A stretch of 32,000 nt of DNA, taken from contig BAAFHK010000002.1 of NCBI GenBank assembly GCA_042852035.1, forward strand, positions 90,001 to 122,000. Direction: 5' to 3'. The notes under the pieces are model-generated. The model was not told where the DNA came from and ran no database searches. It saw only the letters and a list, made by a program, of their open reading frames with translations. The stretch's first letter is position 1; each line of letters begins with the position of its first letter. This DNA is from Candidatus Saccharimonadota bacterium. GTDB taxonomy: Bacteria; Patescibacteriota; Gracilibacteria; BD1-5; UBA2023. Of this stretch, positions 3,001 to 32,000 are shown piece after piece. The position numbers were made by a program, and so were the translations under genes.

Positions 3001-6000
3001 CAATACGATTACCTATGTTGATAATGATAATGGATCAACATCTACAACAGCAACTGGAACTGTGACAAAGACGATTACAGGTATCCCATTCTACCAACTC
3101 TTTGTTCCTGATGCTGGAAGAAATTTTGGATTCAGGCCAGACTATAATGCTCGATATACGGTTCTTGCTTGAGATGCATATCTGAGTGAAGGAAGCCAAA
3201 TTCTTTATGAGACAGCGCCATGACAGTCTCAGAGTCTTGCTGTTTCAACAATACTTACTTCGCCCTATGAGAAGGAGTCACTTTTTTCTATTTATCCTGG
3301 CTGAGGTTATAGTGTTGGTGCGACATCAGATACAGCGATTGAAACAAGCCTAAGAAATCGTACGGATAGCCTTCATCTTGAGGCTTTTGATACTGCAAGT
3401 CAGACTCCTGTTGCTCGAGTTGCTTATCCGATGAAGAATTTGAGTTTTTCTTCGTGTCTAGAATCGAGTTCTGAACTTTCTGAGTGTAGTATCCTCGGCA
3501 GTCAAGGAGCGATTATGTTCGTTACCTATAAATGAGATAATACTACGATTCAAAGCAATGCGAACGAAGCTGCGATTATTATCGACAACGTTGAGAAAGT
3601 AAAATATAATGCAAATGTTGGACTGAGTCTTGGGGAATGAGTGACTCTTTCTCCTATTTGAGACCAATCTATCTCAAGTCTAGTTGTCGATGTTATCGAC
3701 AATGGAAATTCAATCGGAAAACTTCTCGTGCATACTGATGAATCATGAGGAGTATCAGTGTGAGATTCAAATGTTCCTGTAAATGTTCTTACTCTGGATG
3801 AGAAGTTTTCCTATTCTTTGACGCCAAGTTATAGTGATATCTTTAGTCCAGAGAAGAAGGGATATTCTCTTGTAAGAAATCCTTCAAGTCAAATGATCGA
3901 TGAAAGACTCGTCTGACCTTCTCGTATAGAGAGTTTTGGGGCACTTCTCGATGTACCATGAGTATGATGGCATGGGAATAATCGTACTCTTCTCTCATTT
4001 GCTGCATGAGATACTGTAGGTGAGGCGACAAGATGGTTCCATACCTATACACTTGTCAATCTTGGTGATCCAGTTGCTCATGTTGATCTTCCTGATCCAA
4101 TAAATGGTATTCCTGCTCCACCCGAAACAGAAATGGAATGAGTAGATAGAAGTATCGGTACGCAGATTGCTAGTTCTTCAGATCGATATATTCAATCCTA
4201 CAAAAGAAAGGATATGAATGGGGATGGGCTTGAGGATGTGATTGTTGTTTATAGTGATGGCTTTATCGAGCTCTATCTTAATATGGGAGGAACATTCCGA
4301 AAGAAGGAAAAGATAGCCTATATTCCATATATAACCCCATTAGGTATACAGCTTGGTGATTTTACAGGAGATAAATATGCAGACATAATCGCCCTTGATC
4401 GATCAGGATCTCTTGCTCTTGTTGATAATGGGCTGAGAAAACTTAAAGAAACGCTCATAAAAGTAACTGGGGATTTTGCACCAAATGGCATCACCCAATA
4501 CAAGGTCTATGACATGGATAATGATGCTCGTGATGATATCGCTTATCTCACGGAAGGTTGAGAACTGGGAATTCTTTATGGTACTCCTGCTGCAGGGACA
4601 TTCGAGAAGAAGATTCTTGAATCAAATCTCTGAGTAACCCTTTCTTCAGATCCTGAAAAATGAGGGTGAGCCATTAAGGCAAGCATTACTCCGACCTCTC
4701 TTCTTTCGAATCCTACGGGAACCTGAGCTGACGAATCCGTCCTCAATACTGAAGTATTCTACCTCCTTCAATCCGTTTCAGGTACACCAGCTGTTATCAC
4801 AAGTGATGTTTCAGTTATTGATGCGACATTTACTTGAAGTTTTACTGATCCAAATGAGGTTCCAGTATATTCTTGATCGACAGCAACAGGAGTACTTTAT
4901 GTGAAGAGCGAATATGCGCCAGCATATGGACTAGAGGTAGAAAAAAGATATACGAATCTTTCATCTACGACCATCCATGGTGGAGATCGCATACAAGTAG
5001 AGATACATATTACCAATAGTGGATCACAGATAGCAAAAGATGTTAGCTATTTGGATCGAGTTGCAAAAATATTTGAAATTCCAGAAGACTCAAAATATCA
5101 AATTCAACTCGGAGGATCAAACCAAGAGAAGGATTTCGTATCACTTTCTGGTGAAGATTACGAGCTTATACTCCAATGAGTCGATATCCCTCCTGGTCAA
5201 ACTCTCAAATTTCTCTACCAACTCATAGCCACTCCTACTTCGTATGGAGATATGATTGTAGATAATCTTGAGAAAAATCTTGCTTGAGATGATCCATTTG
5301 GTGATGTTGGATTTGAAACATCGAATACCTGTGGAGCAGATATGGTAGTCTGGAATTCAACCGCAGTTCGAGACTATCTGAGGTGAATTCGTTCATTTAC
5401 TCCAGCTGACCTTCCTCCATGACTTGCTGCAAAGCTTGCGGATGCAAATGCTAATGGTATTCCTGATAGTATTGAATTTGCTTCTTGAAGTTCATTTACC
5501 GGATGAGCTCAGGCAACTCTTACAAATGAATTTAATAATATAACAAATTCAGCAACCAATAATCAAACGAACATACTTAATGTAAATGTGAATCCATCTG
5601 GGCAACTTGCTACCATTTGATTTAGTCCAAATGTTGAACAAGAGCTCGAGACAACCATGCAGAATCTTGCAGATGGTCTATCATGTGGATTTGGGTGAGG
5701 ATGATGTCTTTCTTCTCCGATAAACTGGGCACCACTTGCACCAGGAAATGCGATCTCCGTTCTTGGTTCTCCAGTATGAAGAAGTCCAGCAGTGAACCAG
5801 GGTATTCCTGTATTTGCAGCACTTACGAGGATGGATGTTTGAGTTACTCCATATTGTTTTAGCTTTCCTGTTGTATGGCCTGTTTCTCCTCTTTCTCTGA
5901 ATGCCTCACTTCCATGTAGTTCAAGCAATGTGGCTACCGCTTGGTGAGAGGCTGCAGCACAGATGCCAACAGCATTTATGTGAGTGTCGACCGCTTCCAC

Positions 6001-9000
6001 AAATATTGGTGCCGGATGAGTCCTCTGAACGAAATCAAGTAGTAACTTCCTTCGAATATTCGTAACGCCTACCCTTACACTCGGGATGGGTACAGCTATA
6101 TGTATGTGACCTGCATCGACGAATGGTCCAAATCCACTCTATCCTCTTGTTTCGAAAGGAAATTGCATCGTCATGACAAAATCACTTCCTGTTTGTAAAT
6201 GAGATGGATCTGCCGCCGATGGAGATGTTACGGGTATTTCATGACTCGGCACGTCTCGTGATACTTGGAATAGTAACAGTTGTAGTATGAAGGCTGCAAC
6301 GAGTCTTACACCAGCACAAGAGCAATCAATGATTGATGATATCGTAAGCTATATTAAGAGTCCAGATACAACAAGACTGAATAATATCTATAAAAATATC
6401 TCTGCTCGTTGATGAAAATCTGTAAATCTTTGAGGTCCTGCGATTAAACTCGGTGACCCAGGATCTTCAGGAACAGCTATTGATATCGATCTTGATAGCT
6501 CTAAACCTTTCGAAATCGGAAAGATTGTGAAAGTGAATAACAAGAGAATTGCTGGATTTCCTGAATTTATCATGGACTGGGTGTCTCGACAAACAGAAGA
6601 GATAACCAATAAGCTCTTTACTCTGCCGAATCTTGTTATCTATACGCCGAAATCCTATGGTCCAAATACTTCATGAGATCTCTCCGAACTCACGAATTCA
6701 TTCTCAGAAGCGTCTATAAAAAAATGAGTCGATGACTTTACGGCTAAAGTCGGAAGAGCTGGTGATGCTACAAATACGGCTAATGAGCTAAAAAAGAGAA
6801 CCACAGGGAAAACAGCTGCCTCATCAGGATATGATAAATGGCTTGATGGAAAAATTTGAGAAAATGCATCTAAGATTAATGCTGTAACTGGATGAGCAAA
6901 TCAATGGCGACAAGCATGGAAACTTATCGGACAGATACCATTTGTGCAGGTTGAGCAGGTAAGTGTCCCGATTAATATTCCATGGCTCCTCCCTCAAGAT
7001 CTCGATCGCTACGCTCGTTCTCTGAAGCAGTATGAGAATGAATGGAAACGAGCGGAGAATGATTGGTGTGTCGGAAAAACGCCACAAGAATGTGCAGATA
7101 TCAAAACGAATACAAACACTGCAGGGGTACAAAGTACGATAAAAAAGACCATGAAGAGTATCGAAGAATGGAGAAGATTCCCTGAAAAACTCCAAAAGTA
7201 TATTACTTGGAAACAGAGGTATGTAACACAGATTCTTTGTAACATTGATATCCTTGAGCGAATGGTTGGTGGATGGTATCGAGACAATGGTATTCGCTTC
7301 AAAAAATGGGCAGAATTCTATGTTCTTATACGTACTATAGCTGAGACATGGCAGCCATTCCTTGATCTCTGGAGAGATAAGGATCGTTCCTGTTCAGTTT
7401 GTCAAAACCAGAGATGGGATCTGAAGTATTGGAAATTTAAATTACTTTCAGCCGTGATTCCACAGTTGCCAATATTGCAATTTCCACGCTGGCCAGATAT
7501 TGTATTAGATCTTTCTGATATACGATTTGGGGTAGTGTTCCGAGTTCCTGAATTCCGATTCAACATTTCGCCAATAAGACTTCCTGATCTCCCTGCGATC
7601 CGTCTTCCAAATGCTCCAACAGGATCTCTCAATCTTGGATTCAATTTTAATATTCCTCCTCCTCCAAATCTTCCAAATCTTCCTGATCTTCCTTCACTTC
7701 CAAATATACGTCTTCCAAATCTTCCAACTCCACCAAAACTTCCTAAGCTTTTTGGGGCTGTCTCAGTAGGAATAAATATCTTTAAGCTCTATACGAAGAT
7801 TCAGTGTTACATGGAGAAAACACTCCTTGTTCCTGAGGACTATGCTTGAGCAACGATAGCCCAGAGAACCGATAGACAAGGGACTCTTCCTTTTGATTTT
7901 CTCAATTTCCGTCTCCCTCAAATCGCCATCTGAGCATGGCCGAGAGAAATTCGTGTTTCAACCCATGTAAATTTCCAAATAAAGTCTGATTTTATCGTCG
8001 AATTTGCGAAAGCAGCAGTAAAGCCTATTAATGAATTTAGTACGGATCTTGCACGAATGCCAAAGAAATTTGCTCCAGATATAAATATCCAAGGCCCAGG
8101 GAATAAAACGATCAATGTTCATGGAGCGATACAGACCCATGACTATGATGCAGTAATCGCAGCTCTTACAGAAGAACTTCGAAAAAATCAGAGCGATGAG
8201 CTTCTCTCTGTTGATGAGTTTACACCATATCTTCGTTCTGAACTTTTGAAGGCAGGACTTGATGTTGGGAAATTCGATAGAAGCCTCCTTAAGGCAAGAA
8301 ATGAGGCAGATGCCTATACCAAGAAACTTCAAGATGAAAATAAAGAATCATTTAGACTTCTTCGAGAGTACCTTCATGCTGAAGAGGCTGAGACGAAAGA
8401 GCTTGAGAAATTTATCGACCGTCTCAAGGCAGGAAATGCTCTCCTTTCATCACGAGATATTCCTCAATCAGTATTTATAAGTGATACTCCAAGTCTGTCT
8501 GATAGTGCCCTTGATCGATATAATAAGTATCAGAATAAGCGTCTTACTTCTCGAGATTCTGATGTTCCAGATGATCTTGATAAGAAGCTTACATCGATAG
8601 GAAATCGAATGAATCGACTCCTCGCTGCTTGAGTAGGTCCCAATAATTCATCTTCCACGGCACAGGGGTATAGTCCAAGCTTCAATGGTATCTATATACT
8701 CTCTCCTGTTTCAAAAACTCAGACTCGACTTTTTGACTATACGAGCCTTCTTCAAGGGGATGAAGAAGCTGATGTTGCAGATATTGATAACGATGGAGAT
8801 AATGACTACCTCTACCTTCTCTGAGGTTCACTCTATATCAAGTATAACCATCAAAATTCCCCTCAGAGACCAATAGATCTCACTATTTCTACCGTCAATA
8901 CTGATCCAAGTCTCTTACCGGAAACACCAAATTTCTTTAAAGAAAATGTCTCAAGTCCATGACAGATCTATCTTTCATTTAGAAAGGCAAACTCACAAGA

Positions 9001-10720
9001 CACTTCCTTCCGACTTGAATTTTTCAACCGCTATCTCGAATGGGATAGAGTGAAGCTCAACGGGAATGACTTTCCTGATACCCCTCGAACTATAGTAGAT
9101 CTTACAGTTACGGACAATACTGATGATGCTACAATTACTTCAGACTATACAGAATCTCCGATAACTCGATCCCTCGAGTCTGCTTCTGTATGACCGGACT
9201 TTGTTCTTGAGGGTATGAAGGTCACAACCCTCGTCTCTGGTCAGCCATTTGGACTTTCTACAGGGCGTCCTATATATACCGGAAACGGTCAAGCAGTTCT
9301 GTCAGTTACTCTTGAGGGTACTGGTGAACAGAAAGACTTTACCCTCGATAGATTCAAAAAGTATGTATTCCCAGATACTCTCTCTGGAAGTATTACTTCA
9401 GGAAAGGCTTATATTCTTACCCCGTCAGGAACGGAGAAGCTCAGCTATACCAATGACATGCTTGGTATGCCTCTCCTCCCAGGAACGAGAGTTATAGATA
9501 CATCGAATACGATAAGTATTTATAACCCTGTAGAAAATCTTTCGACACAGATTCCTGTTGCAACAGAATATAGGCATATAGGTCTGACAGGAAAGAGTGC
9601 TTCATATTCAGTAAACTTTCCTTATGAGAATGGATACTATAGTGCTCGCCTCAGGTCGCTTCGAACGGGGAATGATATCAATGCTGGTATAACTCTCCTC
9701 GCTCCTCTTGCGGGACTCGATAGATCAGCGCCAGTTGTTGAACTTATGGATCAGAAGGTACCAGTCTATCAAACAGTAACAATCCCACTCAGTGATGCCG
9801 TATCAGAAGCAAGCTCCTTCACATTGCTTGCCGATCCAGATGTGACTCAAGATAGTGATTCAAATGGTGGATATGCAGATGATTTTGTTGCATCAGCTTC
9901 AGGAGTTTCTATCACTTCGAATCAAATTCTTTTTGGTCAGTATGACACGCTCGGAGCTCGAATGATGAATCTTCGTGTTGTAGATTCTTTTGGGAATCGA
10001 TCAACATCTCCTTTGAAGGTTGATGTTTATGCTCCAGTACCAAAAATTAACGCAGTAAGTACCGGATGAGTTCTTTCTGGATCATTGGAAGAACCAATAT
10101 CCCAAGAGCCAATCCATCTTTTCCGAGTGAGACAAGGAGATGGTATTAAGCTTTTGGATCAAAATCCACTTCTCACAGATACGACTGGAAAATTTAGTCT
10201 TGCAAATCTCTTTGGCGCAAATAACACCATTTCTGTCACAAATGGGAATACTTCTACAAATCTTTCTCCAGCTACAGGACTCCCACTCTCTGATCCGAAT
10301 ATTTCAAGTACGGTGACTCCTGCGAATGCCACAGATCCTCTTCAGATTCGATTTACCAATACGAGTACGAATACTCCACTCTTCAAAGCATCTATCGTTC
10401 CTCCATCTAGCCTTCAGGTTATAGGTCCGAATATGAGTTACACTTGATCTAATCCAGTCCTAAAGATTGATCCTCTTTGAGGAACTCAGACGGTTCCTGC
10501 ATCACTTTCGGATCCTAATATTGCATGAGGAATGTACATTACAGAAAATTCTTCTCCTATCATTGGTATCGATAGTCATGGGCAGATCTATCTCATAGAT
10601 TCTTCCGTTACTCTCAGGGCTACAGAAGAATGAGGACACCTCGTTCTCTATGCCTCAAAATGAGGACTTGATGTTGCGAAACTTTCATACCTCTTTGACT
10701 TTTTTATAGCCGGAAAATAA
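2..10720 (+). CDS. Giant secreted/cell-surface protein, 5'-partial (>=3,572 codons with TGA=Gly). Contains Ig-like repeats, FG-GAP/VCBS-like repeats, a Cys/Gly-rich core, a Pro-rich LPxLP repeat and a coiled-coil segment
   Basis: The frame starting at nt 2 has no TAA/TAG until the TAA at 10718-10720. I walked it codon by codon across all gaps between track ORFs (2042-2197, 2711-4213, 4562-4900, 5180-6943, 7850-8056, 8633-9214, 10070-10720) and found only TGA interruptions. Track ORFs at 1793, 2198, 2429, 4214, 4901, 6944, 8057, 9215 and 10085 all share this frame. There is no start codon boundary inside the window. Confidence 0.85.
2130..2995 (+). other. Tandem bacterial Ig-like (invasin/Big-type) domain region inside the giant protein
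   Basis: Repeated blocks of about 90-100 aa follow the pattern 'V..D..GN.V......T....G.F......V....G.A...F'. Examples are LRLLDAKGNLVSPSLLQLTANITNGSF, IELRDPVTNTPISGFSSLATLDIPPGAGAF and FALRDRYGNLSPESPAGTTKLNQ. Assigned by eye only. Confidence 0.45.
4205..4570 (+). other. Three FG-GAP/VCBS-like (integrin-alpha type) Ca-binding repeats inside the giant protein
   Basis: DMNGDGLEDVIVVYSDGFIELYLN, GDFTGDKYADIIALDRSGSLALVDN and YDMDNDARDDIAYLTEGGELGILYG. A further copy, DIDNDGDNDYLYLLGGSLYIKY, lies near 8775-8840. Confidence 0.6.
7577..7750 (+). repeat. Proline-rich LPxLP short tandem repeat (in-frame low-complexity segment of the giant protein)
   Basis: Peptide RLPDLPAIRLPNAPTGSLNLGFNFNIPPPPNLPNLPDLPSLPNIRLPNLPTPPKLPKL. 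At DNA level the units cttccaaat / cttcctgat recur. Confidence 0.8.
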
Positions 10721-13350: not shown

Positions 13351-15321
13351 ATGCCACCAAAAGATAATAAAAAACTGAAAAAACCACTTTCGAAAAAGCC
13401 AAATCAAAACGGACCACAAGTAAAGATTATTGAAATATCTCTCTCAAAGATGATTCTTCCTCTTATTGGGATTCTTCTTTTTATCGTGCTCCTTTGGAAT
13501 TTCGGCAGTAGTGGAGTTTTTTCTGATGAAAAAACACAACTCAATGAAAAAATTGGCTTAAATCAACTCCTTGCTCTTTATAATTCTGGAACCTATGAAG
13601 AGGTTCGGGTTGAGGGCGCTATATTGTATGCCAAAAGACCAATCCGTGAGGTAATCGTCAATAATCAGATGGTAAAATATCGTGATGTTGATAAGCTTCT
13701 TCTCCCGGATAATGTAAAAATTACAGACCTTGGACTCGGAAATCCAGATATTGCTACAAAGGTTGTCATAAAGGGTGAGTGATTCGGAAAGCTTCTTTCT
13801 GATCTTCTTCCATCACTGCTTGGAACCGTCCTCCTTGTGGTTATATTTTTCTGGTTTCTCTCTCGTATGGGAGGGGGTGGTATGGGCTGACCTATGGCAT
13901 TCATCAAGTCACGTGCTCGTGTCTATGATCCAGAGATGGATGAGAAGGTGACTTTCGAGGATGTTGCTGGATCAGATGAAGAGAAATCAGACCTCGTTGA
14001 GGTTGTTGATTTCCTCAAATCGCCACAGAAGTATAAAGATCTCGGAGCAAAAATCCCACGTGGTATCCTCCTCCAGGGGCCTCCAGGAACTGGAAAAACT
14101 CTCCTCGCTCGTGCTGTTGCCTGAGAAGCTGGAGTTCCATTCTTCTCGATTTCTGGTTCTGAATTTGTTGAGATGTTCGTCGGTGTAGGTGCTTCTCGTG
14201 TTCGAGATCTTTTTAAGGATGCCCGTGAAGCAGCTCCTTCGATTATATTTATCGATGAGATTGACGCTATAGGGAAAAAACGAAGTCCTGGTATCGGTGG
14301 AGGTCATGATGAACGTGAGCAAACGCTGAACCAAATCCTTACGGAAATGGATGGATTTGATAACGATACCAATGTCATCGTCATGGCAGCAACCAATCGT
14401 GCTGATGTCCTCGATAAGGCACTCCTTCGTCCGGGTCGTTTTGATCGAAGAGTCACTATCAATCTCCCAACCCTCGAAGACCGTAAAAAAATCCTTGCCG
14501 TCCATGCGAAGGGAAAGCCTTTTGCTGACGATGTGAACTGGGAGAAAATCGCTGGTATTACTGTCGGGTTTTCTGGTGCTGAACTCGGAAACCTTCTCAA
14601 TGAAGCCGCTATCCTCGCGGGGAAAAATAGTAGCAAGAGTATCACGATGGAGATGATCCAGAAGTCTGTAGAAAAAGTCGTTATGGGAAATGAGAAAAAA
14701 TCCCTTCGAATGACCGAGCATGAGAAACGTCTCACGGCTATACATGAAGTCGGACATGCCCTCGTCGGGAAAATGTTGGCTCACACTGATCCAGTTCATA
14801 AGATTTCTATCCTTCCACGTGGTGGTGCCGGTGGAGTTACTTGGTTCCTCCCAGAGAAGGATCGTACCTACACTTCGAAGGCAAAATACCTCGATGAACT
14901 TGCGACCCTCTACGGTGGACGAGTCGCGGAAGAAGTATTCTTTGGTTCTGAATATATCACAACAGGCGCAAGTTCTGATATCGAACGTGCGACTGAGATT
15001 GCACGAGCGATGGTGATGCGATTTGGATTCGATAGTGAGATCGGACCTGAGAATCTCGCTCCTGATATGAGTGAAGGGAACTTCCTCGGAGGTCAGACGA
15101 ATGCCAAGGTTATCTCAGATAAGACTCAGGATCTTATCGACTCGAAGGTTCGTAAGCTTCTCCTCGATGCCTATGCACTTGCCAAAAAGATTATCACTCA
15201 CAATAAAGATCTCCATGAGAAGATCGCACACGCTCTCCTCGAGCGCGAAGAGATGCTTCAGGATGAGTTCGATGAGTTCTTCACCGATGTAAACGGAGTC
15301 CCACAGAAAGTCGCTATGTAA
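13351..15321 (+). CDS. ftsH: ATP-dependent zinc metalloprotease FtsH
   Basis: N-terminal TM helices, Walker A GPPGTGKT, Walker B IIFIDEID, and Zn site HEVGH ([11 protein letters not shown]). Three in-frame TGAs at 13780, 13888 and 14122. The last gives LLARAVAGEAGVPFF, a universally conserved Gly. Confidence 0.97.
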
Positions 15322-15324
15322 CAA

Positions 15325-15351
15325 TAAATCCTCCCAGTAAGGGAGGATTTA
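15325..15351. terminator. Bidirectional intrinsic-terminator-like hairpin between convergent ftsH and the orphan gene
   Basis: taaatcctccc (15325-15335), agtaa loop, gggaggattta (15341-15351): a perfect 11-bp stem. It lies 3 nt after the ftsH stop and abuts the minus-strand stop at 15352-15354. Flanking A/T tracts are weak. Confidence 0.6.
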
Positions 15352-16029
15352 TTAGTAGTGACCATCAACGAGATCTTCATATCCTGTCTTTCACCATCCG
15401 ATGAGTCATGCGGTATTTGCTGTTGTACTCTTCTGTCACGACCTTCGGGATTCTCTATGATCGAATGTATTTCTTCGACCGAGAAGGATATCTACATATG
15501 GCCTTGCGATGGCAAGGAAAGATTCACGATGTTTCCTCTGTAGCTGCCAAGATTTCCTTCCACCGGTACTGAATTCTGACTCTTGGAACCAACCTGGATG
15601 CTCTTCTCGAACCATGCCGATGAGGAGCTTGATCTCATAGTAGTTGAGATCGAGAATGAGAGTATTGATTTCTTTCGCTGAAAGGGTTTCTTTTGTATTT
15701 TTTGATCGTTTTCTTCAGGCTAGCAGTCATCGCACTCTCGCCTGGATATCTTCACTCAGATTCAAGAGAACTTCTTTATCTTGAGAGAGCTCCCTTTCTA
15801 TGTGCATCTTTTGGAGTCGATGACTCCTCGCTATCCCAGCTTCACTCGAGTGCCCCACTTGCTCTACGATAGGATCAGATGTGACGATGCCTTTTAGTGC
15901 GGCCTGGACGAGTCGTTCGACCTCTTTGCTCTCTATACCAAATTGCTGTCCCCAATAGTCGAGACTTTGGCTTCTGAGATGAGATGTAGCATCTTGTTCG
16001 GTAGTTGTAGGGAGAGGAGTGTCTGGCAT
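15352..16029 (-). CDS. Hypothetical protein (225 aa) with a C-terminal HEPN-like RNxxxH motif
   Basis: The track ORF 15727-16029 continues through 5 TGA codons for another 125 codons with no TAA/TAG, ending at TAA (15352-15354 on +). The C-terminal segment ARPYVDILLGRRNTFDHRES contains R-N-x3-H. I recognise no other family. Confidence 0.6.
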
Positions 16030-16068
16030 TAGGTAATTTTAAATATAAATGAAATGATGTCAATAAAA

Positions 16069-16168
16069 TTAATATTTTGTTAATATTTGTGTGAAGAATT
16101 AAGTTAATATTAAAACACTCTTAATTCTGGAAGGCTTTTTGTTTTGAGAAAAACTAAGTATTAATATA
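16069..16168. promoter_or_regulatory. Repeated TTAATATT boxes in the AT-rich divergent intergenic region upstream of the methyltransferase
   Basis: Exact TTAATATT at 16069-16076, 16080-16087 and 16104-16111, the third extending to the palindrome TTAATATTAA. An imperfect TTAATATA lies at 16161-16168. Boxes 1 and 2 are 11 bp apart. Confidence 0.4.
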
Positions 16169-16191
16169 ATACGAAAAATTTGTTATTGAAT

Positions 16192-17430
16192 ATGTCTAAA
16201 GAAAAGAAACACATTAAAATTATTGAACTTTTTGCTTGAGTTTGAGGATTCAGAATCTGACTTGAATCAGCATCAGATTTATTTAAGGTTGTCTGGAGTA
16301 ATCAGTGGGAACCTTCAACAAAAACCCAAGACGCCTCAGATATATATGTGTCTCGTTTTTGAAGTGAACATCACTCAAATGAAGATATCGCAAAAGTAGA
16401 AACCGATTCTATACCGAATTTTGATATGCTGGTCGGATGATTTCCTTGTCAGGATTACTCCGTAGCTCGTACACTTAAACAATCTGCTTGACTTGAATGA
16501 AAGAAATGAGTTCTTTGGTGGCAAATTCATAGACTTCTTTCAGAAAAAAAAGAGAAGCCGTCATATTTATTCCTTGAGAATGTTGATAGATTATTAAAAT
16601 CTCCAGCAAAACAAAGATGAAGAGATTTTGCAATAATGCTTGCATCACTTTCCGATTTAGGGTATGCAGTAGAATGGCGAGTAATTAATGCTGCTGAATA
16701 CTGAATGCCTCAAAGAAGAAGAAGAGTTTTTTTCCTTTGATATCATAAGTCAACAAAACTCTATCACGATTTACTTGCTTCAAAAAGTTCTTGGATTTCA
16801 AAAGATTGAGTACTTGCAGGGGCTTTTCCTATAAAGGAGAGTCCAGCTTTGATTAAAGAATTTCAACTTGAGTGAGATCTTGTTGAGCTCACAAATGAAT
16901 TTAATAAATGATTAAAAAAGGCAAGCCCATTTGAGAATGCCTGAATAATGATTAATCGAGAAGTTCTTAGTTATAAAGTCAGTCCAAATTATAAGTGAAA
17001 ACATGTAACTCTTTGAGATATCTTAATACCTGACAACGAAGTTCCTGAAGAATTTTTTATCAAAGCTGATACTCTAGATAAATGGAAATATTTAAAATGA
17101 TGAAAGAGCGAGAAGCGTGTAAATAAAACTACCTGAATAGAGTATAAATATAGTGAAGGATGAATGATTTTTCCTGATGCACTCGATAAGCCTTCTCGAA
17201 CCATTATCACAGGTGAGTGAGGTGCTTCGGCATCAAGGTTTAAACATGTTATTGAAACTAGTGACGGACGACTTCGAAGACTTACCCCTATAGAACTAGA
17301 ACGACTCAATATGTTCCCAGATAATCATACAGCTTGAGCTACCAACATTAAGCGAGCATTCTTTATGTGAAACGCACTTGTTGTTGGTGTTATTAATAAA
17401 ATTTGACAGTCACTAGCATCAAGGATATAA
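16192..17430 (+). CDS. DNA (cytosine-5)-methyltransferase, type II R-M modification subunit (M.Sau3AI-like)
   Basis: Motif I IIELFAGVGGF, motif IV GGFPCQDYS, motif VI ENV, motif VIII QRRRRVF, motif X GNALVVGV. Both Gly in FAGVGG (16237, 16243) and one in GGFPCQ (16438) are TGA. Ends at TAA 17428-17430; 412 aa. Confidence 0.93.
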
Positions 17431-17437
17431 AGAAGGG

Positions 17438-18874
17438 GTGCTTACTAATTTTGATCAGACATCTCCAGAGTCAATTTTAGCTTTTGCTAAGAAATTATTG
17501 TGAACGAATTTAAAAAGCATTTTACCACCTTGATATAAACCAAGATGAGGTAAATGAGGTTTGTGACAACTTTTAGAAGAGCATTATTTTCATAAACCTT
17601 TAGATAGTGATAGTAAGCCTGATTTTCCTGATGCTTGAGTCGAACTAAAGGCTACACCAATAAAGAAATTCTCTAGAAAATGAATTTGAGCAAAAGAGAG
17701 GCTCTCTTTAAATATAATAAATTATGATGACCTAGTTAATGAGACTTGGGAAAATTCACATTTCTTATCAAAGAATTCACTACTTTTACTAGTATTTTAC
17801 CTATACGAAGAAAATCAGATTAATATAGATCACTTGATAAAAATAGTGGAGCTTTATTCCTTCTTAGATTATGAAGAGGATTTAAAAGTTATACAGAATG
17901 ACTGGATTACTATTCAATATAAGGTTTTAGAATGAAAGGCCCATGAACTATCTGAATGAGATACTCAATATCTTGGCGCTTGTACGAAGTGAGCAAAAAA
18001 TCAAAAACCAAGATCCCAACCATTTTCTTCTACTCTAGCGAAACAGAGAGCATTTTGTTTTAAGCAGGGGTATGTAAATTATATACTCAAGCGAATCCAG
18101 TGAAAAACTAGAGAGTATGATTCGCTTTTTAAGAATGATGGATTGGATATAGCAAAAATAAGTATTGAGCAAAGAGTAAAGACCTTATTTAAGCCTTATT
18201 TATGAAAAACAGCTTTTGAATTGGGTAACATATTTGGAATGGAATTTAAGAATCAAAAGGGATATTATGCTAAAATTAGTGATAATATAGTAAAAATGAT
18301 ATTGTGAGTAAAGAATCTTAATAAGGTTTCGGAATTTGAGAAGGCTAATATCTCCTTAAAGACTATTAGGGTTTCTTATGATTGAACAATTCAGGAAGAT
18401 ATTTCTTTTCCTGCATTTAAATTTTGCGAAATTATAAAAGAGGATTGGTATGATTCTGAACTTTATAATTTACTCGAGTCCACAAAATTTCTTTTTATTA
18501 AATATAGAATTACCACAAATACAGTTGCCGAGTTTGATAGATTAAATGATACAGAAAAAAATAAATTTTTAATTTTGGATGAAGTTTACCTTTGGAATGC
18601 TCCAGTTAATGATATCGAAAATTATGCTAAACAAACATGGAGAGATACAATTAAAATAATCAAGGAATGAGTTATAATAAATCCTATTATTCAAAAATCA
18701 TGAAAAGTAATAGAAAGGAATAACCTCCCAAAATCTAGGGATACTAAAATGATTCATGTTCGCCCGCATTGAATAAATAAGAAAGATATTGATATACTTC
18801 CAAACTGAAAAGAATTAACAAAACAATGTTTTTGGTTTAACAAAAGTTATATAAAAGACCAGCTTTGATTTTAA
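17438..18874 (+). CDS. MutH/Sau3AI-family type II restriction endonuclease (predicted GATC-type specificity)
   Basis: The N-terminal block GKGGLGQLLEEHYFHKPLDSDSKPDFPDAGVELKATPIKK...KERLSLNIINY is the MutH/Sau3AI D...E-x-K nuclease signature. One frame, TGA interruptions only, TAA at 18872-18874. GTG at 17438 is the first start after the in-frame TAG at 17414; there is no in-frame ATG near the N-terminus. Confidence 0.85.
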
Positions 18875-18890
18875 AATAATCAATATTTTT

Positions 18891-20096
18891 TTACCCCACC
18901 TCGAAGAGTATTCCATCATCTCCTTTCGATTTTTTCCCGATGAATCCCTCATGGATGATAGACTGCCCATATCGAGACCGGAGGTTCGCGAGAGTCGAGT
19001 GGAGACGAGTGTCGTGGTCGATACGTTCTTCACGCACATCGAAGACAGAGAGTTGACGAGGGGAGAAGGGAGAGAGATGACCGAAGGTAATCCCGACCGT
19101 TCGATAGAGTGCATCTGACTCATAGGCCTCATGGAAGAGGGCTCTGAGTGTCTCCATCATCCTCCCTCGATCGATGGTAGTTTCTCATAGGTCAGCATAT
19201 TTCGAGGTGTAGGCGAAGCTCTTTTTTCTGAGGAATATGCCGATAAGCCGGACTCACTCTCGTTCGGTCATAAGGGTTTCGTAGGCGCGTTCGAAGTGCA
19301 TGAGTGCCTGCTTCCAGAGAAAGTGGGGATTACTATTGATATTGGCATTAAACGATCGACTCACGACGATGCTCTTTCGTCGTTTCTCGGTATCTCGAGG
19401 TTTCCAGGTATCGATCCCATGGAGTTCACTCCAGAGGATGAGTCCATTTTTCCCGAGGATTTTTCGTACGCTATGAGGATCCATATTCATGAAGTCAGCG
19501 ACCGTGCGGATATGGATGCCGAGGCGGTCAGCGCTCCCGCGTCCGATAAAGGGAACTTCTCTTATGGCAAGATTCTTATACACGGATTCGACTTCATCGC
19601 GGTCCCAGAGGACCGTTGTGCCAAATGGCTTATGCAGATCTCAGAACATTTTCGCTCGTATGCGAGTATTCGATATTCCTATAGATACGGGGATACCGAT
19701 ATCATGGTAGATATCGAGCTTGAGACTTTCTGCGAATGCATTATATTCTCGTGCCATCCCACTCACCGTCGCGAAGGTTTCATCGATCGAGAATATTTCG
19801 AGTTTCCCGAGTTTCGTCGCGAGATACCCCATGAGACGTTCTGATATTTCTCGGTAAAACTTGTGGTCGGGGTGTTTCTTCACGAGATCTTTCTTCACGA
19901 CTCGTTCAGCTTCCCAGAAGGGGGTACCGACTTTGATCCCGAGACGCTTCGCCTCATAGCTCGCGGCTATCGTGATCTGATCTCCTACGATAATCGGCTT
20001 TCACCGGAGGCTTGGGTCACGCAGGACTTCACACGAAGCATAAAATGAGTTGCAGTCTATGTGCGCATAGAGTGTTTTCGAAGTATGAAAAATCAT
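18891..20096 (-). CDS. Y-family translesion DNA polymerase (UmuC/DinB-like)
   Basis: N-terminus MIFHTSKTLYAHIDCNSFYASCEVLRDPSLRGKPIIV, catalytic SIDETF, and ...KPFGTTVL...VPFIGRGSA. Three track ORFs share one frame and are joined by 4 TGA codons (20001, 19641, 19254, 19185). TAA at 18891-18893. Confidence 0.92.
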
Positions 20097-20110
20097 ACAT
20101 AAAAATCTTA

Positions 20111-20488
20111 CTAATTATACTTGCGAAAAGAGCCAACTACCACACCGAGTATTTCGCAGGGTCCGGTGATATCTATAGGTGAATATTTCGGATTGGCGGG
20201 GAGGAGTCGAAGAGTGGTTTTCTTCTTCTCAAGGATTTTTAGCGTGACAGCGCCATCGAGGGAGGCGATGATGATATCTCCGTCTCGGGGAGTTCGGCCA
20301 CGGTCGAGAATGACGGTGTCTCACGCGAGTATGCCGACCCCTTCCATACTGTCTCATCGTACTCGTACGAGATAACTCGATGCGGGGTGATCGATAAGGT
20401 GTGTCGTGATGTCGAGTGGAGTACCCGGTGAGGTCTCTGGGGTAAATGGGAGACCTGCTGGTACAGATTCGTAGATTTTGAGAAGCAT
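20111..20488 (-). CDS. UmuD-like S24 (LexA-family) self-cleaving peptidase with no DNA-binding domain
   Basis: MLLKIYESVPAGLPFTPETS...VRVRGDSMEGVGILAGDTVILDR...DGAVTLKIL...LLPANPKYSPI. Ser (GDSM) and Lys (TLK) dyad, and an Ala-Gly putative cleavage site at residues 11-12. The Gly of GDSM is TGA (20354-20356). The stop lies 14 nt upstream of the polymerase start. An alternative TTG start at 20527 would add 13 aa. Confidence 0.88.
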
Positions 20489-20492
20489 AATA

Positions 20493-20505
20493 TATACAAA
20501 GTATA
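20493..20505. promoter_or_regulatory. Palindrome TATAC-AAA-GTATA immediately upstream of the umuD-like start (candidate operator)
   Basis: Perfect 5+5 inverted repeat 5-17 nt upstream of the ATG at 20488. On the coding strand it reads as two adjacent TTTGTATA direct repeats. Confidence 0.3.
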
Positions 20506-20582: not shown

Positions 20583-20993
20583 ATGACGAAAGCTTCTCCG
20601 AAAAAATTCCCAAAATCACTTCTGATCCTTGGGGGAATCGTACTCATATGAGTTCTCCTTCTCTCTGCCTTTTTCTTTTTCCGTACGCTCAAGGGAGTGC
20701 GGCAGGATGGATGGAGGCATCCACCTCGGAGTCCACTTGGGATGTTTCTTTCCTGAGAATCAACGATACATGGGACAGGGGCTATCGAATGATGGATGAC
20801 CTTTGATTTTGTGAATACTTCATTTCACCTTCCTCCCGAATACCTCAAGGATACTCTTCATATCGAAGATAAAAAATATCCCCACATCCCAATAGACCGT
20901 TCTGCAAAAAAAGCCGGATTTAAAAAAGAAGATTACTTGGGTATGATACAACGAGCGGTAGACTATTATTCTCAAAGCACAAAAATCCAATAA
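20583..20993 (+). CDS. Small membrane-anchored hypothetical protein (136 aa)
   Basis: MTKASPKKFPKSLLILGGIVLIGVLLLSAFFFF is an N-terminal TM anchor. Three in-frame TGAs. TAA at 20991-20993, followed 1 nt later by the dedA start. Confidence 0.65.
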
Positions 20994-21614: not shown

Positions 21615-22070
21615 ATGGCATATTGGATCATGAAAAGTGAACCTTCTGAATACTCTATTGATGATCTTGAGCGCGATCGTGTTTCGAGCTGGTTTTGAGT
21701 TCGAAATTACCAAGCTCGGAACTTTATGCGAGATAACATGAAAGAGGGGGATGAAGTCTTTTTCTATCACTCATCCTGTGATGAAGTATGAATAGTATGA
21801 TTTGCAAAAGTCGTAGGGAAACCCCATCCTGATGAGACACAGTTTGATAGTAAAAGTGATTATTTTGACCCGAAAGCAACGCGAGAAAAACCAATTTGGA
21901 TTTGTATCGATGTTGCCTTTAGTTTGAAATACCCCCGTGTCATCACTCTCGGGGAATTGCGAAATATGAGAGGGCTTGAACATATGAGAATCCTCCAAAA
22001 AGGAAATCGACTCTCCATCACTCCGCTCACAGACAATGAGTGAGAAATTCTAAAAAAAGCCTGCTATTAG
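21615..22070 (+). CDS. EVE (PUA-like) domain protein
   Basis: MAYWIMKSEPSEYSIDDL...SWFGVRNYQARNFMRDNMKEGDEVFFYHS...IVGFAKV...DPKATREKPIWICIDV is the canonical EVE signature. The Gly of GVRNY is TGA. Confidence 0.88.
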
Positions 22071-26932: not shown

Positions 26933-27970
26933 CTATAAGGAAGTTAGAAGGAATGAACGATATTCTTTCTTAGAGAATTCGAAGAATTTCTTATCCCCCA
27001 TTTGGATCTGTGCATTGACGAGAATAAATGGCTTTCCATCTGAATTCATCCATTTCTTTTGAGGGGGACGGACTGAAAGTTCCAGATTATAATGGTTTCG
27101 AAAGTATACTTGGATATATTTCCTGATATCTCGATGGAGAGCAGGGTCGAGAATAAAGGGAGTATATTTTTCTCAATCAGGACTATAATATGTCTGATGA
27201 TCCTTGTGAAGGATGACTATAATCTGTGCATCAGGTAGTGGAAAATGCACTATTTTTTTATCTTGGATTTCCTCAAGAGATCAGCGAGTTTTGTAAAATA
27301 AACTATCATGAATTGGGTACTCTTCCCAGACTATTTGGCTTGGGTTTTTGATATCGACAAGACTCCCGAAATCCATAAGGGCGTTGTTTATATCTCTTGC
27401 GAGTTCTTCCTTTTTGTATTTATCAGTGTAAGTGATACAAAAATTTCGAAAATCTGCTTCAATGATTTCTTTTTCTTGAATGGTAAGGATTGTATCTTTT
27501 CAGCCTTTATAAAATCTCGAAAATACCTTTTCGAGATTTGTATCCCAAGCAAGAAAGGCATCACCATATCCAAATGCAAGGATTGCACTAGACGTATATG
27601 GTCATACTCCTGGGAGTTTTCAGAGTTGATTTTTTTCTCTCGGGAATTGCCCATTATATTTTTCTATGACTTCTTTGGCGGTTTTTAGGATGTTTCGCGC
27701 TCGGGAATAGTATCCAAGTCACTGATAGTAGGGGAAGAATGTTTCATAGTCAGTATTTGCAAGTGATTCAAGAGTTGGAAATTTTTTTATTACCCTTTCG
27801 AAATAATCGATAACGCGTGATACTTGTGTTTGCTGCAGAAATATCTCAGAAAGCCACACACGATAGAGTATGTCTTTTGAATTTTTTGATTGATATTGTC
27901 TCCATGGAAGTGAGTGTCTCCCATGTTTTTTATACCACTCGAGAAGTTCGATCCAGGGGAAGGTCATCAT
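26933..27970 (-). CDS. mutY: A/G-specific adenine DNA glycosylase MutY (HhH-GPD plus NUDIX-like C-terminal domain), lacking the canonical 4-Cys Fe-S loop
   Basis: LLEWYKKHGRHSLPWRQ...YRVWLSEIFLQQTQVSRVIDYFERVIKKFPT...GLGYYSRARNILKTAKEV...LPGVGPYTSSAILAFGYG. In-frame TGAs give GLGYY and GVGPY. True stop is TAG at 26933-26935; 345 aa. Confidence 0.88.
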
Positions 27971-28074
27971 TTGCCCATTCTATTGCTTTTTTGACTCGAT
28001 GCAAATTCACTCTTTTCTCTTGTTTTTCCCTCTATAAAATCTATACTTATTCTATAATATTTTACTCCACTTTT

Positions 28075-31000
28075 ATGCGTAAACTTATACGGATATTCTT
28101 ACTGATTGTTGCCCTTGTTTCAGTATGAGCTCTTGCTTATACCGCATATATTTTGAGTTCACGTACTCTTATTCTTCCATTTGTAGGATCAGAGAATCAA
28201 AAATGAAGCCTACTTGAGTTGGTATTTTCTCCTCCATGAATTCTCGCTCCCACAAAGGATGTTGAGCTTATTGATAGTGAAGCAATACTTTCTTCTCTTG
28301 AAAAAGATGGTAAAATCCTCCCTCAGGAGGTTGTTTCTGGAGAATATAGCCTTCTCGTAGAAGGCTGATATTTACGACTTGCATCGCTTAATACAGAAAA
28401 ATCAGATACTCCTGTTACCATTAAATCGAGTAATTATAATAAAATAAAAAAGACCCTATTTCGACTTCCAAGAAATATTACCCTGACTCCCTCAGATATT
28501 CCGAAGAGTATTTCAGTATATTCACTCGGGGAACCAAAAGATCAACTCTACGAGGTTTCATTCTATGGTCTTCCTGATGGTATCACCCCTTCTGATGTCC
28601 GATATTATGTACACTATGATACTCAGGCATGATGTAATATTTCGAATTGGCAGACCTATCAACCGCTCCAATCCTTGTATTACTGACCAAAATATCCTTT
28701 CTGATCGAATGTTTCTGGTGAGATTGCTATACGCACAGAAAGAGTTGCATATACCCCTCTTCTTTCGGATGAAGTTCTTCCAGATGGAAGAGATGGTCAG
28801 AAGTGGATAAAACAAGTGAAACTCCCGTATAATCGAGATGCTTCTCGAGTTTGTATTATTGCTTGAGTTGGCGGACTTTACCAGGTAGTTGAAGACCGAT
28901 TTATGGATCCATTTACAGCGACTGGAAAACTTTCTGAATCACTTTCTCCAGAGTTTGATATGAAGAGTCAGATTGAATTCACTTTTTCACATGACATATA
29001 TGCTGATAGTGGAGCTCTCTACAGTGCGGAATATATGAATCATCGAAATGATGCGAAAGTTGAGTTTCTCAAACGCTTTGATATTACTCCAAATATTCCT
29101 CTCAAAACAGAGGATCTTATGCTTACTCCGAATCGTGCGGTTCTTACTCTTCCGCTTGAAGAAGGTAAAGATTACAATATAAGTCTGCGTGATGTGACTG
29201 ATATTTATGGCAGAAAAACGACAGTTCATACTTTAGTAAATCCGAAAAGTGAACCATTTCTTTCATTAAAACTTGGTCAAACAAAACAGATTTTCACGAC
29301 GAAAAATACGATAGAAGGGAAGCTTTATGCTCTGAAATCGAATGAAAAAAAGTACAACCTCAAGCTTTGTAACCTTTCCCTTGAAGACTATTCAAAGATC
29401 GAAAGAATGAATACAAACACTTTGCGAGGAAAGAACGCTCTTGTGTTTGAAATTCTTGCTCGTGGAAGAGAGTGTCGTACGAAAGAGATTGTTCTTTCAT
29501 GAAGTTGATATGTGTCTCCGTTTACGGTAGATGAATTCTTTCAATGAGAAAAAACGCCAGGACTTTATGCCCTCTATTTTGCGAACTCCTCAGATATAGA
29601 AAAATTTGATAAATTTATATCACCTATTATTTTTTCTATAGTAGATACGCATCTTACCCTAAAAGTTGATGCAAGTGGAAAAATGATGGTTCTTGCGACT
29701 GATATCCTCACAGGAAAACCGAGACAAAATCAAGTAATTAGTCTCACGAGAAATATATCACGTACCTATAAGGAACGATGGGATAGTTCGAATCAAAGAG
29801 TCGAAAAAGAATACATTCCCCTTACGAGTCAGGCATTTGCTACTGGGGTAAGTATATGAGTTACAAATGGTGGATGATTCGCTGAGACAAAAGTTGATAC
29901 ACTTGCATGACTTGATGGATACGATTCAAATCCATTCTATCTTACCTTTCAAAGTTGGTGGGATTATGAGGGTCGATATGATAGTTTTCTCGTAGAATCT
30001 CATGGTGATGGGCATCTTGGATATCTGGTTTCTACATGGAATGATGGTATAACGGGTTATAATTTTTGAATCAAAGATTCTGATTATTCTTACCAGAGTC
30101 GAGGAAAATACACAAGTTACATCCATACGGATAGGAAGCTCTATCTCCCATGAGAAAAAGTTCATATACATGCAATCCTTCGTGAAAATAAAGCATCTTT
30201 AACGATTCCAACTACTCCTTTTATTGCAATACTTACCGACCCACTTGGGCGAGAGATACGTAGAGTTTCTGTCAAAACAAATGAGTATGGATCTTTCTCT
30301 CTTGATTATGAGCTCCCAAAAGAGGCAACTCTCGGAATGTATAGCATCAACCTCATTACTCCGGATAATACAGAATATGTAGAAAACTCTTGGACGAATT
30401 TTCAGGTTGAAGTCTTCAAAAATCCTACATTTACAGCTACGGTTGAGTTAAAGAGTGATGATTTAGAAAATGAAAGCGTAAAAAATCTCATGAAGGTCCC
30501 GAATAATGATCCGTACAATCCATGGTATACTGATGCATATATTGGAAACTTTAGTATCGGGGGAATCGTAAAAGCCAAATACTATAATGGTGCAGAAATG
30601 AGAAATACGAGCTTTACCTATCGTGTCTATAGAAGCGAATATTATCCTGATGATTATTGGGGGGATTGTTTTTGGTGATGTTACTGGGAGCCACCTCTAG
30701 AGCTCTATAGCGAAGGTACTGGAAGTATTGATGGTGATGGCTATGGTGTTATGCGGATCCCAGTAGAATATAAATCATTTTATAGCGACTATAAGTATAC
30801 CGTTGAAGTAACAATTAGGGATGCTCTTTCTTGAGAAGAGGTAACAACGCCTTGATCACTTATTGTGAAGCTTCCTTCGACCTATAAGGGATTCTCTCTC
30901 GATAACCCTCTCGTATTTACTCCAAAAAAGAAAATCCTAAAAAATACTGAAATGCTTACGGGCGATTTTGCTCCGACTTATGGTAAGTGGGACCAAAGTC

Positions 31001-32000
31001 TTGTGAATAAGTATCAGTATGAGATATATAGAAAAGACTATGAAGAGTGATGGGTGGAAGATATTCGTATGGGAAAAACTCGTATAACGACAAGCGAAGA
31101 TGTCCTTATATCGAGTGGGGTTATCGTTAAAAAAGACTTTTCTATAAATATCCCAGCAGCAAAACCAGGAGAATACCACATAAAGGTTCGCCCTGCTTCT
31201 TGAGATGCTCCAGAATCGAGTATATCTGAGACGCTATTCTATATTTCATGAGACAATACAAGCATCAGAGATATGAATCTCAGAGTAATACCAGAAAAGA
31301 CGGTCTATCACAAGGATGAGACAGCGAGAGTTATGATTCAAGTGCCATTTACTGGTTCATATCTCCTTATTACTCAGGAGAAATGAGGTGTTATTCAGAA
31401 AGAATATCTTTACCTTTCGGGAAATACCCTTATGCGTGAGTATAAGGTAGATGATACGATGATTCCAAACTCGTATATATGAGTTGTGGCACTTCGTCCT
31501 TGAATTGGTTGAGATGATACAAGAGGATATGCAGTAGGCTATGGAGAAATTATTACCGATATTTCCGAGAAGAAATCTATCCTGACTATTACTCCAGATA
31601 AAGAGCGTTATAAGAATCGAGATACAGCGAATATTGATCTCACTCTCACAAATAGCTCTTGAAATCCTCTTATTGGGGAAGTGACAGTAATGGTCGTAGA
31701 TGAAAGTCTGATTCGTCTCCTGGGAAATGTCGACCTTGATATTATGCCAAAATTTTATCAAAAGTATCCATTTACCGTGCGTACAGCTCTTACAGCTATT
31801 GGTATCGAACGCTGACAGTTTCTCTCAAGAAAATGATCGAACGGAGGCTGAGGAAGCAAGTGATGAGATGGTTCAGAGATCTCAACTCGAACACTCTTCG
31901 AAAACACAGCCTACTATCATCCTGGAATTGTTACGGACATAAGTGGTAAGGCACGAGTTACCTTTACGCTTCCTGATAACATTACAAACTATCGTATTAT
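28075..32000 (+). CDS. Alpha-2-macroglobulin family protein (bacterial A2M/MG-domain), 3'-partial
   Basis: Signal-anchor MRKLIRIFLLIVALVSVGALAY. MG-domain motifs YIHTDRKLYLPGEKVHIHAILRE, FQVEVFKNPTF, VTVMVVDESLIRLLG and RTLFENTAYYHPGIVTDISGKARVTFTLPDNITNYRI. The frame is open (TGA only) from 28075 to the window end. The Gly-rich linker GSNGGGGSKGGDGSE uses 5 TGA codons. Confidence 0.88.

Follow-up and report, generated by a model that had tools for sequence, protein, structure and literature searches.

Gene content of the locus and the reading of TGA

The 32,000-nucleotide (nt) stretch of DNA considered here, referred to throughout as the window, comes from a Candidatus Saccharimonadota bacterium (GTDB lineage Bacteria; Patescibacteriota; Gracilibacteria; BD1-5; UBA2023) and covers positions 90,001 to 122,000 of contig BAAFHK010000002.1. 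Between ftsH and dedA it carries a Sau3AI-family type II restriction-modification (R-M) operon, composed of a methyltransferase gene (M) and an endonuclease gene (R), together with an open reading frame (ORF) designated ORF225 and a umuDC-like operon. An earlier note, made from the sequence alone, had described these five genes as a single mosaic accessory block. Read with translation table 11, the window dissolves into short ORFs; once TGA is taken as sense, long and closely packed genes appear, and all five are intact where the earlier note had placed them. Exact code-25 translations of eight window genes, these five among them, are present in an NCBI-derived protein collection. At the TGA sites of M and R, standard-code homologs have Gly in 80% and 58% of cells, respectively, and Trp in none; TGA is therefore read as Gly. 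The features of the locus are as follows (aa, amino acids; bp, base pairs).

15321-15356, no strand: perfect stem-loop of 13 bp, lying between ftsH and the convergent ORF225
15322-18890: variable defense slot, from the ftsH stop to the umuC stop
15352-16029, minus strand: ORF225; GC 0.457; TGA at 5 of 18 Gly codons
16030-16191: 162 bp of AT-rich intergenic DNA separating ORF225 from the divergent M, with promoter-like sites and the onset of the GC step
16192-17430, plus strand: M, C5-cytosine DNA methyltransferase, 412 aa; GC 0.344; TGA at 25 of 34 Gly codons
17438-18874, plus strand: R, Sau3AI-family type II restriction endonuclease, 478 aa, GTG start; GC 0.290; TGA at 20 of 28 Gly codons
18891-20096, minus strand: umuC-like Y-family DNA polymerase, 401 aa; GC 0.492; TGA at 4 of 29 Gly codons
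20111-20488, minus strand: umuD-like self-cleaving peptidase of the S24 family, 125 aa counted from the ATG at 20488; GC 0.484; TGA at 2 of 12 Gly codons
20489-20582: AT-rich divergent intergenic region between umuD and a conserved 136-aa membrane ORF
20583-20993: the 136-aa membrane ORF, followed by dedA; N-terminal membrane helix; conserved at 62-63% in L084-L086

The stretch from 20489 onward had been taken for a divergent promoter only, a description that overlooks the conserved 136-aa ORF. Loci of related genomes are referred to by L numbers.

A constant backbone framing a variable slot

The closer relatives were obtained from exact-protein look-ups. A scan of GTDB genomes with ftsH returned nearest representatives at 63-67% identity (a Candidatus Gracilibacteria metagenome-assembled genome at 67% and a Patescibacteria one at 63%), which share upstream synteny only and are too distant for an insertion test. 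In L086, a 63-kb JGI contig whose der and ftsH are 93% and 91% identical to those of the window, the backbone follows the window order: giant protein, der, TraB-like, ftsH, umuC, umuD, 136-aa ORF and dedA, continuing to the right with EVE, PHB-depolymerase-like, VIT, mutY and A2M genes. Its ftsH-umuC slot holds one Mrr gene instead of ORF225, M and R. The 303-aa product is recognized by PADLOC as a type IV methyl-directed restriction enzyme (1.9e-54). The slot of other relatives is filled as follows.

L084/L085: 1075-aa helicase, PADLOC 'possible alternative Cas3' (7.8e-175); GC 0.268; TGA at 45 of 61 Gly codons
L181/L182: complete type I R-M system (HsdR, HsdS, HsdM) with DUF6602 and DUF3800 genes
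L183: AbiEii and its partner, then TnsA-like and rve transposase genes
L087/L088: unknown proteins of 146 and 429 aa, an ORF225 homolog and a 69-aa ORF
L083 (ftsH 92.5% identical): ORF225 (38%), M (86%) and R (71%) homologs, a 98-aa ORF and a PDC-S13/DinD-like gene

The array umuC-umuD-136-aa ORF-dedA-EVE through mutY and A2M is collinear in L084, L085 and L086. In L181, the EVE, VIT, mutY and A2M genes of the right backbone flank umuDC, and in L087 umuD-umuC lies beside the slot; the R-M pair is missing from all five of these loci. Six different contents are found adjoining umuC or between ftsH and umuC in the window and eight related loci. Constant flanks with differing defense cargo at one position are the signature of a chromosomal defense hotspot, and this is the arrangement seen here. 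The cargo has a GC content of 0.27-0.41 as opposed to 0.40-0.54 in backbone genes, and all of it carries in-frame TGA. The TGA share of Gly codons is raised in most cargo genes (up to 0.80), with Mrr (0.15) and the AbiE pair (0.09-0.21) as exceptions. The ftsH-dedA synteny comparison proposed in the earlier note thus gives a divided answer: DNA between ftsH and umuC varies, while umuDC is collinear in relatives and does not.

The locus is an ordinary chromosomal defense hotspot beside a conserved umuDC operon, in a bacterium that uses code 25. The fuller interpretation, which is probable, is that 15322-18890 is a defense hotspot, that umuDC belongs to a vertically inherited backbone, and that the M-R pair represents a code-25-only Sau3AI sub-family. 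It draws on gene identities, backbone synteny, slot variability, recoded-only clades and codon statistics, all of them direct observations. The 3′ ends of ftsH and umuC frame the slot, whose cargo would be swapped between lineages; in the window the slot contains a Sau3AI-family type II R-M operon and the lineage-specific ORF225. The M-R sub-family would circulate among TGA=Gly bacteria only, keeping its low GC and heavy TGA-Gly usage. The donors would be of this type, and turnover may proceed by recombination in the conserved flanks or by means of transposons.

On the left side of the slot, the strong hairpin pointed out previously does fold exceptionally well (15321-15356; dG -19.8 kcal/mol, z = -6.3), with none of 200 shuffles folding equally well. 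It is likely a bidirectional terminator that marks the left edge of the variable DNA. The window and L086 are homologous at the nucleotide level up to the ftsH stop codon (15321) and again from within the 3′ end of umuC, and protein homology reaches the umuC stop. The right edge is therefore the umuC stop codon at 18891, and not the umuD promoter as formerly proposed. Beyond the ftsH and umuC stop codons, the DNA is unrelated across all loci compared. Within the slot, a promoter-like TTGACA-16-TAAAAT (11/12) lies on the minus strand at 16063-16036, in the intergenic region 16030-16191.

As the earlier note had observed, there is no integrase, transposase or tRNA in the window, nor does the window contain any Rfam family. 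No convincing direct or att-like repeat flanks the slot, and no sequence is shared beyond the stop codons; the features by which an integrative element is recognized (integrase or transposase, tRNA or att site, flanking repeats) are thus missing from the window. The flanks of the slot diverge incongruently. The ftsH C-terminus (14650-15321) is 96% identical between the window and L087 as opposed to only 78% for umuC, and the umuC genes of L084 and L087 are 96% identical. This incongruence suggests recombination breakpoints at the slot. A recent recombination tract comprising the slot and the ftsH 3′ end was considered and rejected, as sliding identity shows no near-identical tract.

Like the defense islands and hotspots known from other genomes, the locus combines constant flanks (ftsH on one side, umuC-umuD-dedA-EVE on the other) with cargo of atypical composition, and its relatives carry type II R-M, Mrr, type I R-M, AbiE, an alternative Cas3-like helicase or a PDC-S13 candidate. 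It differs from them in that integrase, tRNA and att repeats are missing from the window, that breakpoints coincide with stop codons, that transposase genes occur in L183 only, and that in-frame TGA pervades all cargo. In L183 (11243-15268), a more remote relative, AbiEii and its partner are followed by TnsA-like and rve transposase genes in which 52-61% of Gly codons are TGA. The transposase genes constitute a code-25-adapted transposon, possibly a vehicle of the kind that fills the slot. A canonical Tn7 arrangement was rejected because gene order and orientation do not match.

A vertically inherited umuDC-like operon

UmuC contains both Y-family polymerase domains, IMS (PF00817, 5.6e-34) and IMS_C (PF11799, 6.9e-12), and UmuD is an S24 peptidase (PF00717, 6e-27) with no helix-turn-helix (HTH) or other DNA-binding domain, in which an AG site and GDSM...K motifs can be read by eye. 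The exact 125-aa UmuD product occurs in the NCBI-derived collection. The identification of a umuDC-like operon is thereby confirmed. As in UmuDC (DNA polymerase V), the peptidase gene lies directly upstream of the polymerase gene, on the same strand and 14 bp apart. Unlike the curated examples, both proteins score under the NCBIfam cut-offs: UmuC reaches 127.9 against 431 for NF002955 and 188 against 399 for the best DinB model, and UmuD reaches 94.1 against 110 for NF007621. 'umuDC-like' is therefore the correct name for what is a Gracilibacteria/Absconditabacteria-specific lineage residing in the chromosomal backbone and not in mobile DNA.

UmuC homologs form a graded series of 99, 87, 78, 76, 67 and 66% identity, then 56-39%, in which those named by their source are Gracilibacteria; the series continues at 36-32% with Absconditabacteria, and the remaining matches are at most 32% identical. 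In every relative umuD is adjacent to and upstream of umuC, and umuDC synteny is common to six of them (L084-L087, L181, L183). The operon has a GC content of 0.51-0.54 in all relatives, so its high GC is not evidence of recent import. It is a vertically inherited part of the backbone of this Gracilibacteria lineage and not an accessory element, contrary to the description of umuDC as accessory or mobile.

These observations bear on the model of the earlier note, in which all five genes make up one mosaic accessory or mobile block that entered between ftsH and the dedA cluster. The R-M and umuDC stretches are both tetranucleotide outliers, and umuDC operons are often carried by plasmids and integrative and conjugative elements in other bacteria, which would fit such a block. 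However, the umuDC-dedA array is collinear in L084-L086, and partly so in L181 and L087, where R-M is absent; umuC keeps its GC in all relatives lacking R-M; UmuC similarity follows taxonomy; and nucleotide homology between the window and L081 is limited to M-R (16192-18852), starting exactly at the M start codon. Only the ftsH-umuC slot varies, umuDC being syntenic in the six relatives, and insertion of all five genes as one block is very improbable. Neither of the outcomes that the earlier note had listed against itself is seen: the same five genes, in one order and of homogeneous composition, in all relatives, or nearest homologs of the TGA-rich genes in standard-code bacteria with TGA positions not conserved as Gly. 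More generally, an atypical composition need not mean foreign origin: umuDC stands out in this window and is yet vertically inherited.

Identity and predicted function of the restriction-modification pair

The assignment of the pair to a Sau3AI-like R-M system withstands comparison with Pfam, NCBIfam and PADLOC. M matches PF00145 (9e-65), TIGR00675 (244 bits; cut-off 100.65) and, over its full length, PADLOC MTase_II (2.4e-170), and it contains the AdoMet-binding motif FAGVGGF (FxGxG) and the catalytic PC motif GGFPCQ. A 7-bp gap separates it from R, which matches the NF040973 equivalog with 483.4 bits (cut-off 300) over residues 10-476 of 478 and PF02976 (MutH) in two stretches; its catalytic residues D62, E69 and K71 are invariant in 23 sequences.

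Several traits are shared with Sau3AI and M.Sau3AI, which recognize GATC, produce C5-methylcytosine and are represented by NF040973 and a Dcm-type methyltransferase. The window R matches at full length above the equivalog cut-off and has two MutH-like stretches with an invariant D...E.K, it is immediately preceded, on the same strand, by the gene of a C5 methyltransferase that has motifs I and IV, and GATC is depleted in loci that bear the pair, though modestly in the window. In contrast to Sau3AI, the window pair is written in genetic code 25, with about 73% of its Gly codons being TGA, and belongs to a recoded-only sub-clade, whose identity to standard-code members does not exceed 45-48% for R and is about 66% for M. 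Family membership and GATC depletion together lead to the prediction that M methylates the cytosine of GATC at C5 and that R cleaves GATC sites lacking this methylation.

Expressed as the observed/expected ratio per locus, GATC stands at 0.78 in the window, 0.64 in L083, 0.41 in L081, 0.22 in L089, 0.73 in L091 and 0.48 in L100, all of which have an R homolog; the sister loci without the pair, L086, L084 and L087, have ratios of 0.95, 0.93 and 0.92. This depletion is consistent with the predicted specificity, yet modest. A lineage with a 5-methylcytosine (m5C) methylase and a sister with a methyl-dependent Mrr at the same slot would be expected to restrict each other's DNA.

A standalone EVE-domain protein, which has a modified-base reader fold, is encoded at 21615-22070 of the window, in the conserved backbone near the slot. 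In L091 an EVE gene (2198-2653) with 61% identity to it directly follows the Sau3AI-like R with a 10-nt overlap; its GC content is 0.454 in a locus of 0.348. EVE proteins and m5C R-M systems may be functionally linked.

Composition and TGA usage

The GC steps reported at the locus are real. From 0.449 in ftsH, GC falls to 0.344 in M and 0.290 in R and rises to 0.492 in umuC and 0.484 in umuD, with about 0.40 elsewhere in the window. A k-mer comparison, suggested in the earlier note and carried out in 1-kb segments of the 32 kb, finds tetranucleotide deviation of z>3 solely at 16001-19000 and 19001-20500, the R-M and umuDC stretches. In-frame TGA codons number 25 in M and 20 in R as against 5 in ORF225, 4 in umuC and 2 in umuD, and they also fall, as previously remarked, within functional motifs: motif I (FAgVgGF) and motif IV (GgFPCQ) of M and the catalytic stretch DFPDAgVELK of R, where lower case marks TGA-encoded Gly.

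TGA accounts for 45 of 62 Gly codons in M and R versus 172 of 736 in the other window genes (73% versus 23%; Fisher p = 9e-15). Comparable shares (0.72-0.76) are found in the AT-rich code-25 loci L100 and L179 (21-23% GC), with 0.39-0.45 in L081 and L091, and M-R resembles the AT-rich code-25 loci in its TGA-Gly usage more than it does its host. Host genes themselves vary, from 0.27 to 0.55 in GC at third codon positions (GC3) and from 0.05 to 0.37 in TGA share.

The closest relatives of M and R come from recoded genomes

All of the 21 best R homologs (46-73% identity) have TGA at conserved Gly columns, and none of those ranked 22nd and lower does. Most of these best homologs were translated with code 4 by their source pipelines, in which TGA is read as W. 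At the DNA level, all eight loci with at least 49.6% identity hold 10-24 in-frame TGA codons, and none of the 85 loci with at most 45% identity holds any. A metagenome scan with the R alignment returned mostly standard-code sequences, since back-translated patterns cannot contain TGA, and its sole use was to supply standard-code sequences for comparison. After masking of W to G, the 22 R sequences from recoded genomes group in a single bipartition in 199 of 200 neighbor-joining (NJ) bootstraps, and the five recoded M sequences of full length group likewise in 200 of 200, so the phylogenies called for in the earlier note do yield code-25-only clades for M and R.

A contrasting possibility is that M-R came recently from a standard-code donor, for instance a Bacillota bacterium or a phage, and gained its TGA codons later. 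The Sau3AI family is indeed widespread in standard-code Bacillota and present in some viral contigs, and the recoded clade must ultimately descend from a standard-code ancestor. Yet standard-code R sequences reach no more than 45-48% identity, as opposed to 67-74% for recoded ones, the pair contains 45 in-frame TGA codons, mostly at conserved Gly sites, and many TGA positions are common to six recoded lineages. Viral contigs offer only standard-code homologs of 37-45% identity. A recent transfer of this kind is next to impossible; the argument of the earlier note against a recent standard-code donor holds for the R-M pair, given the recoded clades and the boundary that TGA draws along the identity scale.

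The IMG/VR scan for the same cassette in code-25 phages, another of the checks proposed, gave seven viral loci, all 37-45% identical and without in-frame TGA; no close relative was found in IMG/VR contigs. A viral origin of the R-M pair was rejected on these grounds. A code-25-restricted gene pool is supported for M-R by these distributions. Such a pool had been suggested for all five genes; it applies to the R-M pair and fails for umuDC, which is inherited, and for ORF225, which is host-like in composition and not linked to the pair.

The pair occurs in differing contexts. Four related lineages (the window, L083, L089 and L090) have M-R immediately after ftsH. In L081, a code-25 genome of 33% GC, it is found beside integrase, primase, DUF5906 and type III R-M genes, and in L091 it is followed by the EVE gene and arginine genes. 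The window and L083 M genes are sisters (200/200) and about 80% identical in nucleotide sequence, equal to der and ftsH. M-R was therefore probably present in the common ancestor of these two lineages and did not arrive recently. For dating M-R against ftsH, the identity of codons at conserved residues is uninformative, as it is about 0.5 in all comparisons and thus near saturation.

Such an age invites the explanation that M-R is an old resident pair of the genus whose low GC and TGA richness reflect gene-specific codon usage, through weak expression and AT-biased mutation and not through foreign origin, with no need for a mobile pool. It agrees with the position after ftsH in four lineages, with window-L083 divergence of M equal to that of core genes, and with the GC3/TGA gradient among host genes. 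The TGA-rich state is kept in every lineage while TGA and GGN codons interchange in both directions, so gene-specific codon usage is possible as a partial explanation. On the other hand, the same pair occurs at 68-77% aa identity in unrelated contexts in code-25 genomes of differing GC (L081, L091), and the M of L081 is as close to that of L089 (80.7%) as the window M is (80.8%). The codon statistics are also awkward for this explanation: M and R combine a GC3 of 0.22 with a TGA share of 0.72, whereas the giant gene upstream, with a GC3 of 0.27, has a share of 0.27. In addition, every other slot cargo is lower in GC than the neighboring backbone, and most are richer in TGA. Residence by codon usage alone is for these reasons unlikely, though less so than the one-block insertion, and circulation of the pair among code-25 bacteria is preferred.

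Several points weigh against the preferred combination of hotspot, inherited umuDC and code-25-only M-R. Most relatives are short metagenomic contigs of unknown completeness, and the window holds no mobility gene or att-like repeat showing a route of cargo exchange. GATC is only moderately depleted in the window, where CTAG (0.56), GGCC (0.62), ACGT (0.66) and GTAC (0.75) have lower ratios; stronger depletion of these four may stem from other R-M systems elsewhere in the genome. Given the wide host spread of GC3 and TGA share, gene-specific codon usage could account for some of what is anomalous in R-M. The standard-code M set derives from an R-based search, not an exhaustive M search, and the trees are NJ rather than maximum likelihood. 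The M tree does not group the four ftsH-adjacent genes together (11/200), so one ancestral acquisition cannot be separated from repeated ones.

In very AT-rich code-25 genomes (21-23% GC) nearly all Gly codons of the Sau3AI homologs are TGA, 22 of 23 and 24 of 26 (L179 6371-9441 and L100 7006-8445, respectively). The L179 homolog is paired with a convergent methyltransferase of 554 aa, next to HNH and AAA_21 genes. Public protein predictions from code-25 organisms often use code 4, so that Gly columns read Trp (up to 31 W per 470 aa in R homologs P0016-P0036), an artifact that lowers apparent similarity. Trp at conserved Gly columns in public protein sets can serve as a cheap flag for code-25 genes translated with code 4, and no DNA is needed for it.

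The genetic code as a proposed barrier to gene flow

Gracilibacteria and Absconditabacteria are known to contain prophages with dense in-frame TGA, which were judged compatible with no code other than 25 (Liu et al., mBio 2023, PMC10746230); the principle of a code-restricted mobile gene pool is therefore not new, and the R-M pair follows the same principle. It differs from those prophages in being a defense gene pair without phage genes and with no close homolog in IMG/VR. A common R-M family with a branch seen only in TGA=Gly bacteria provides a gene-by-gene view of how an altered code isolates a lineage. In this way the genetic code as a barrier to gene flow becomes countable in natural genomes, and the code-25 prophage observations are extended to defense genes.

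A broader proposal is that the reassigned code acts as a working firewall. In that case Gracilibacteria and Absconditabacteria would draw their defense genes, and even their transposase genes, from a private pool restricted to code 25, of low GC and with Gly codons nearly saturated with TGA. Hotspots like that beside umuC would be refilled from this pool, and sister lineages would end up with mutually incompatible defenses (m5C R-M versus methyl-dependent Mrr). This proposal is tentative and falls somewhat short of being probable.

ORF225

ORF225 had been labeled an orphan HEPN-like gene. The first half of the label is apt. It has no Pfam, NCBIfam or PADLOC match, a word-indexed homolog search returned nothing, and an exhaustive search found 5 matches among 1.84 billion representatives. 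Homologs are encoded in the same ftsH-umuC slot in L083 (38%) and L087/L088 (27%). The second half of the label finds no support in profile, motif or fold. R-N-T-F-D-H occurs only in the window ORF225, its His being replaced in all four homologs; the invariant residues are H144, P145, W147, G157, L163, F171, R185, R186, T202 and T206. An AF2 model (pLDDT 68.8; models 63-69) has two helix/beta-hairpin units, and the best Foldseek matches are the winged-helix proteins MarR, RPC62 and ScpB, none of them significant (best E 0.068). No HEPN structure is among the Foldseek matches of these moderate-confidence models. ORF225 as a HEPN protein was rejected, since there is no profile match, the Rx4-6H motif is not conserved and no HEPN fold is matched.

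By sequence comparison, ORF225 appears to be a fast-evolving, lineage-specific slot protein with host-like composition. The models would allow a tandem winged-helix, DNA-binding protein, which is possible. It is absent beside M-R in L081, L089, L090 and L091 and does not belong to the R-M unit that was transferred.

Giant genes of the window

The window opens with a single ORF of 3543 aa (89-10720) that contains 80 in-frame TGA codons. In L083 and L086 its homologs, about 4050 aa long and containing FG-GAP repeats, are found upstream of der. Another giant gene, of the A2M/MG2 family in relatives, begins at 27817 and runs out of the window. Its longest frame (27817-31998, plus strand) overlaps at the 5′ end by about 150 nt with that of a divergent mutY-like gene (26933-27970, minus strand), and the true starts of both genes probably lie further inside their frames.

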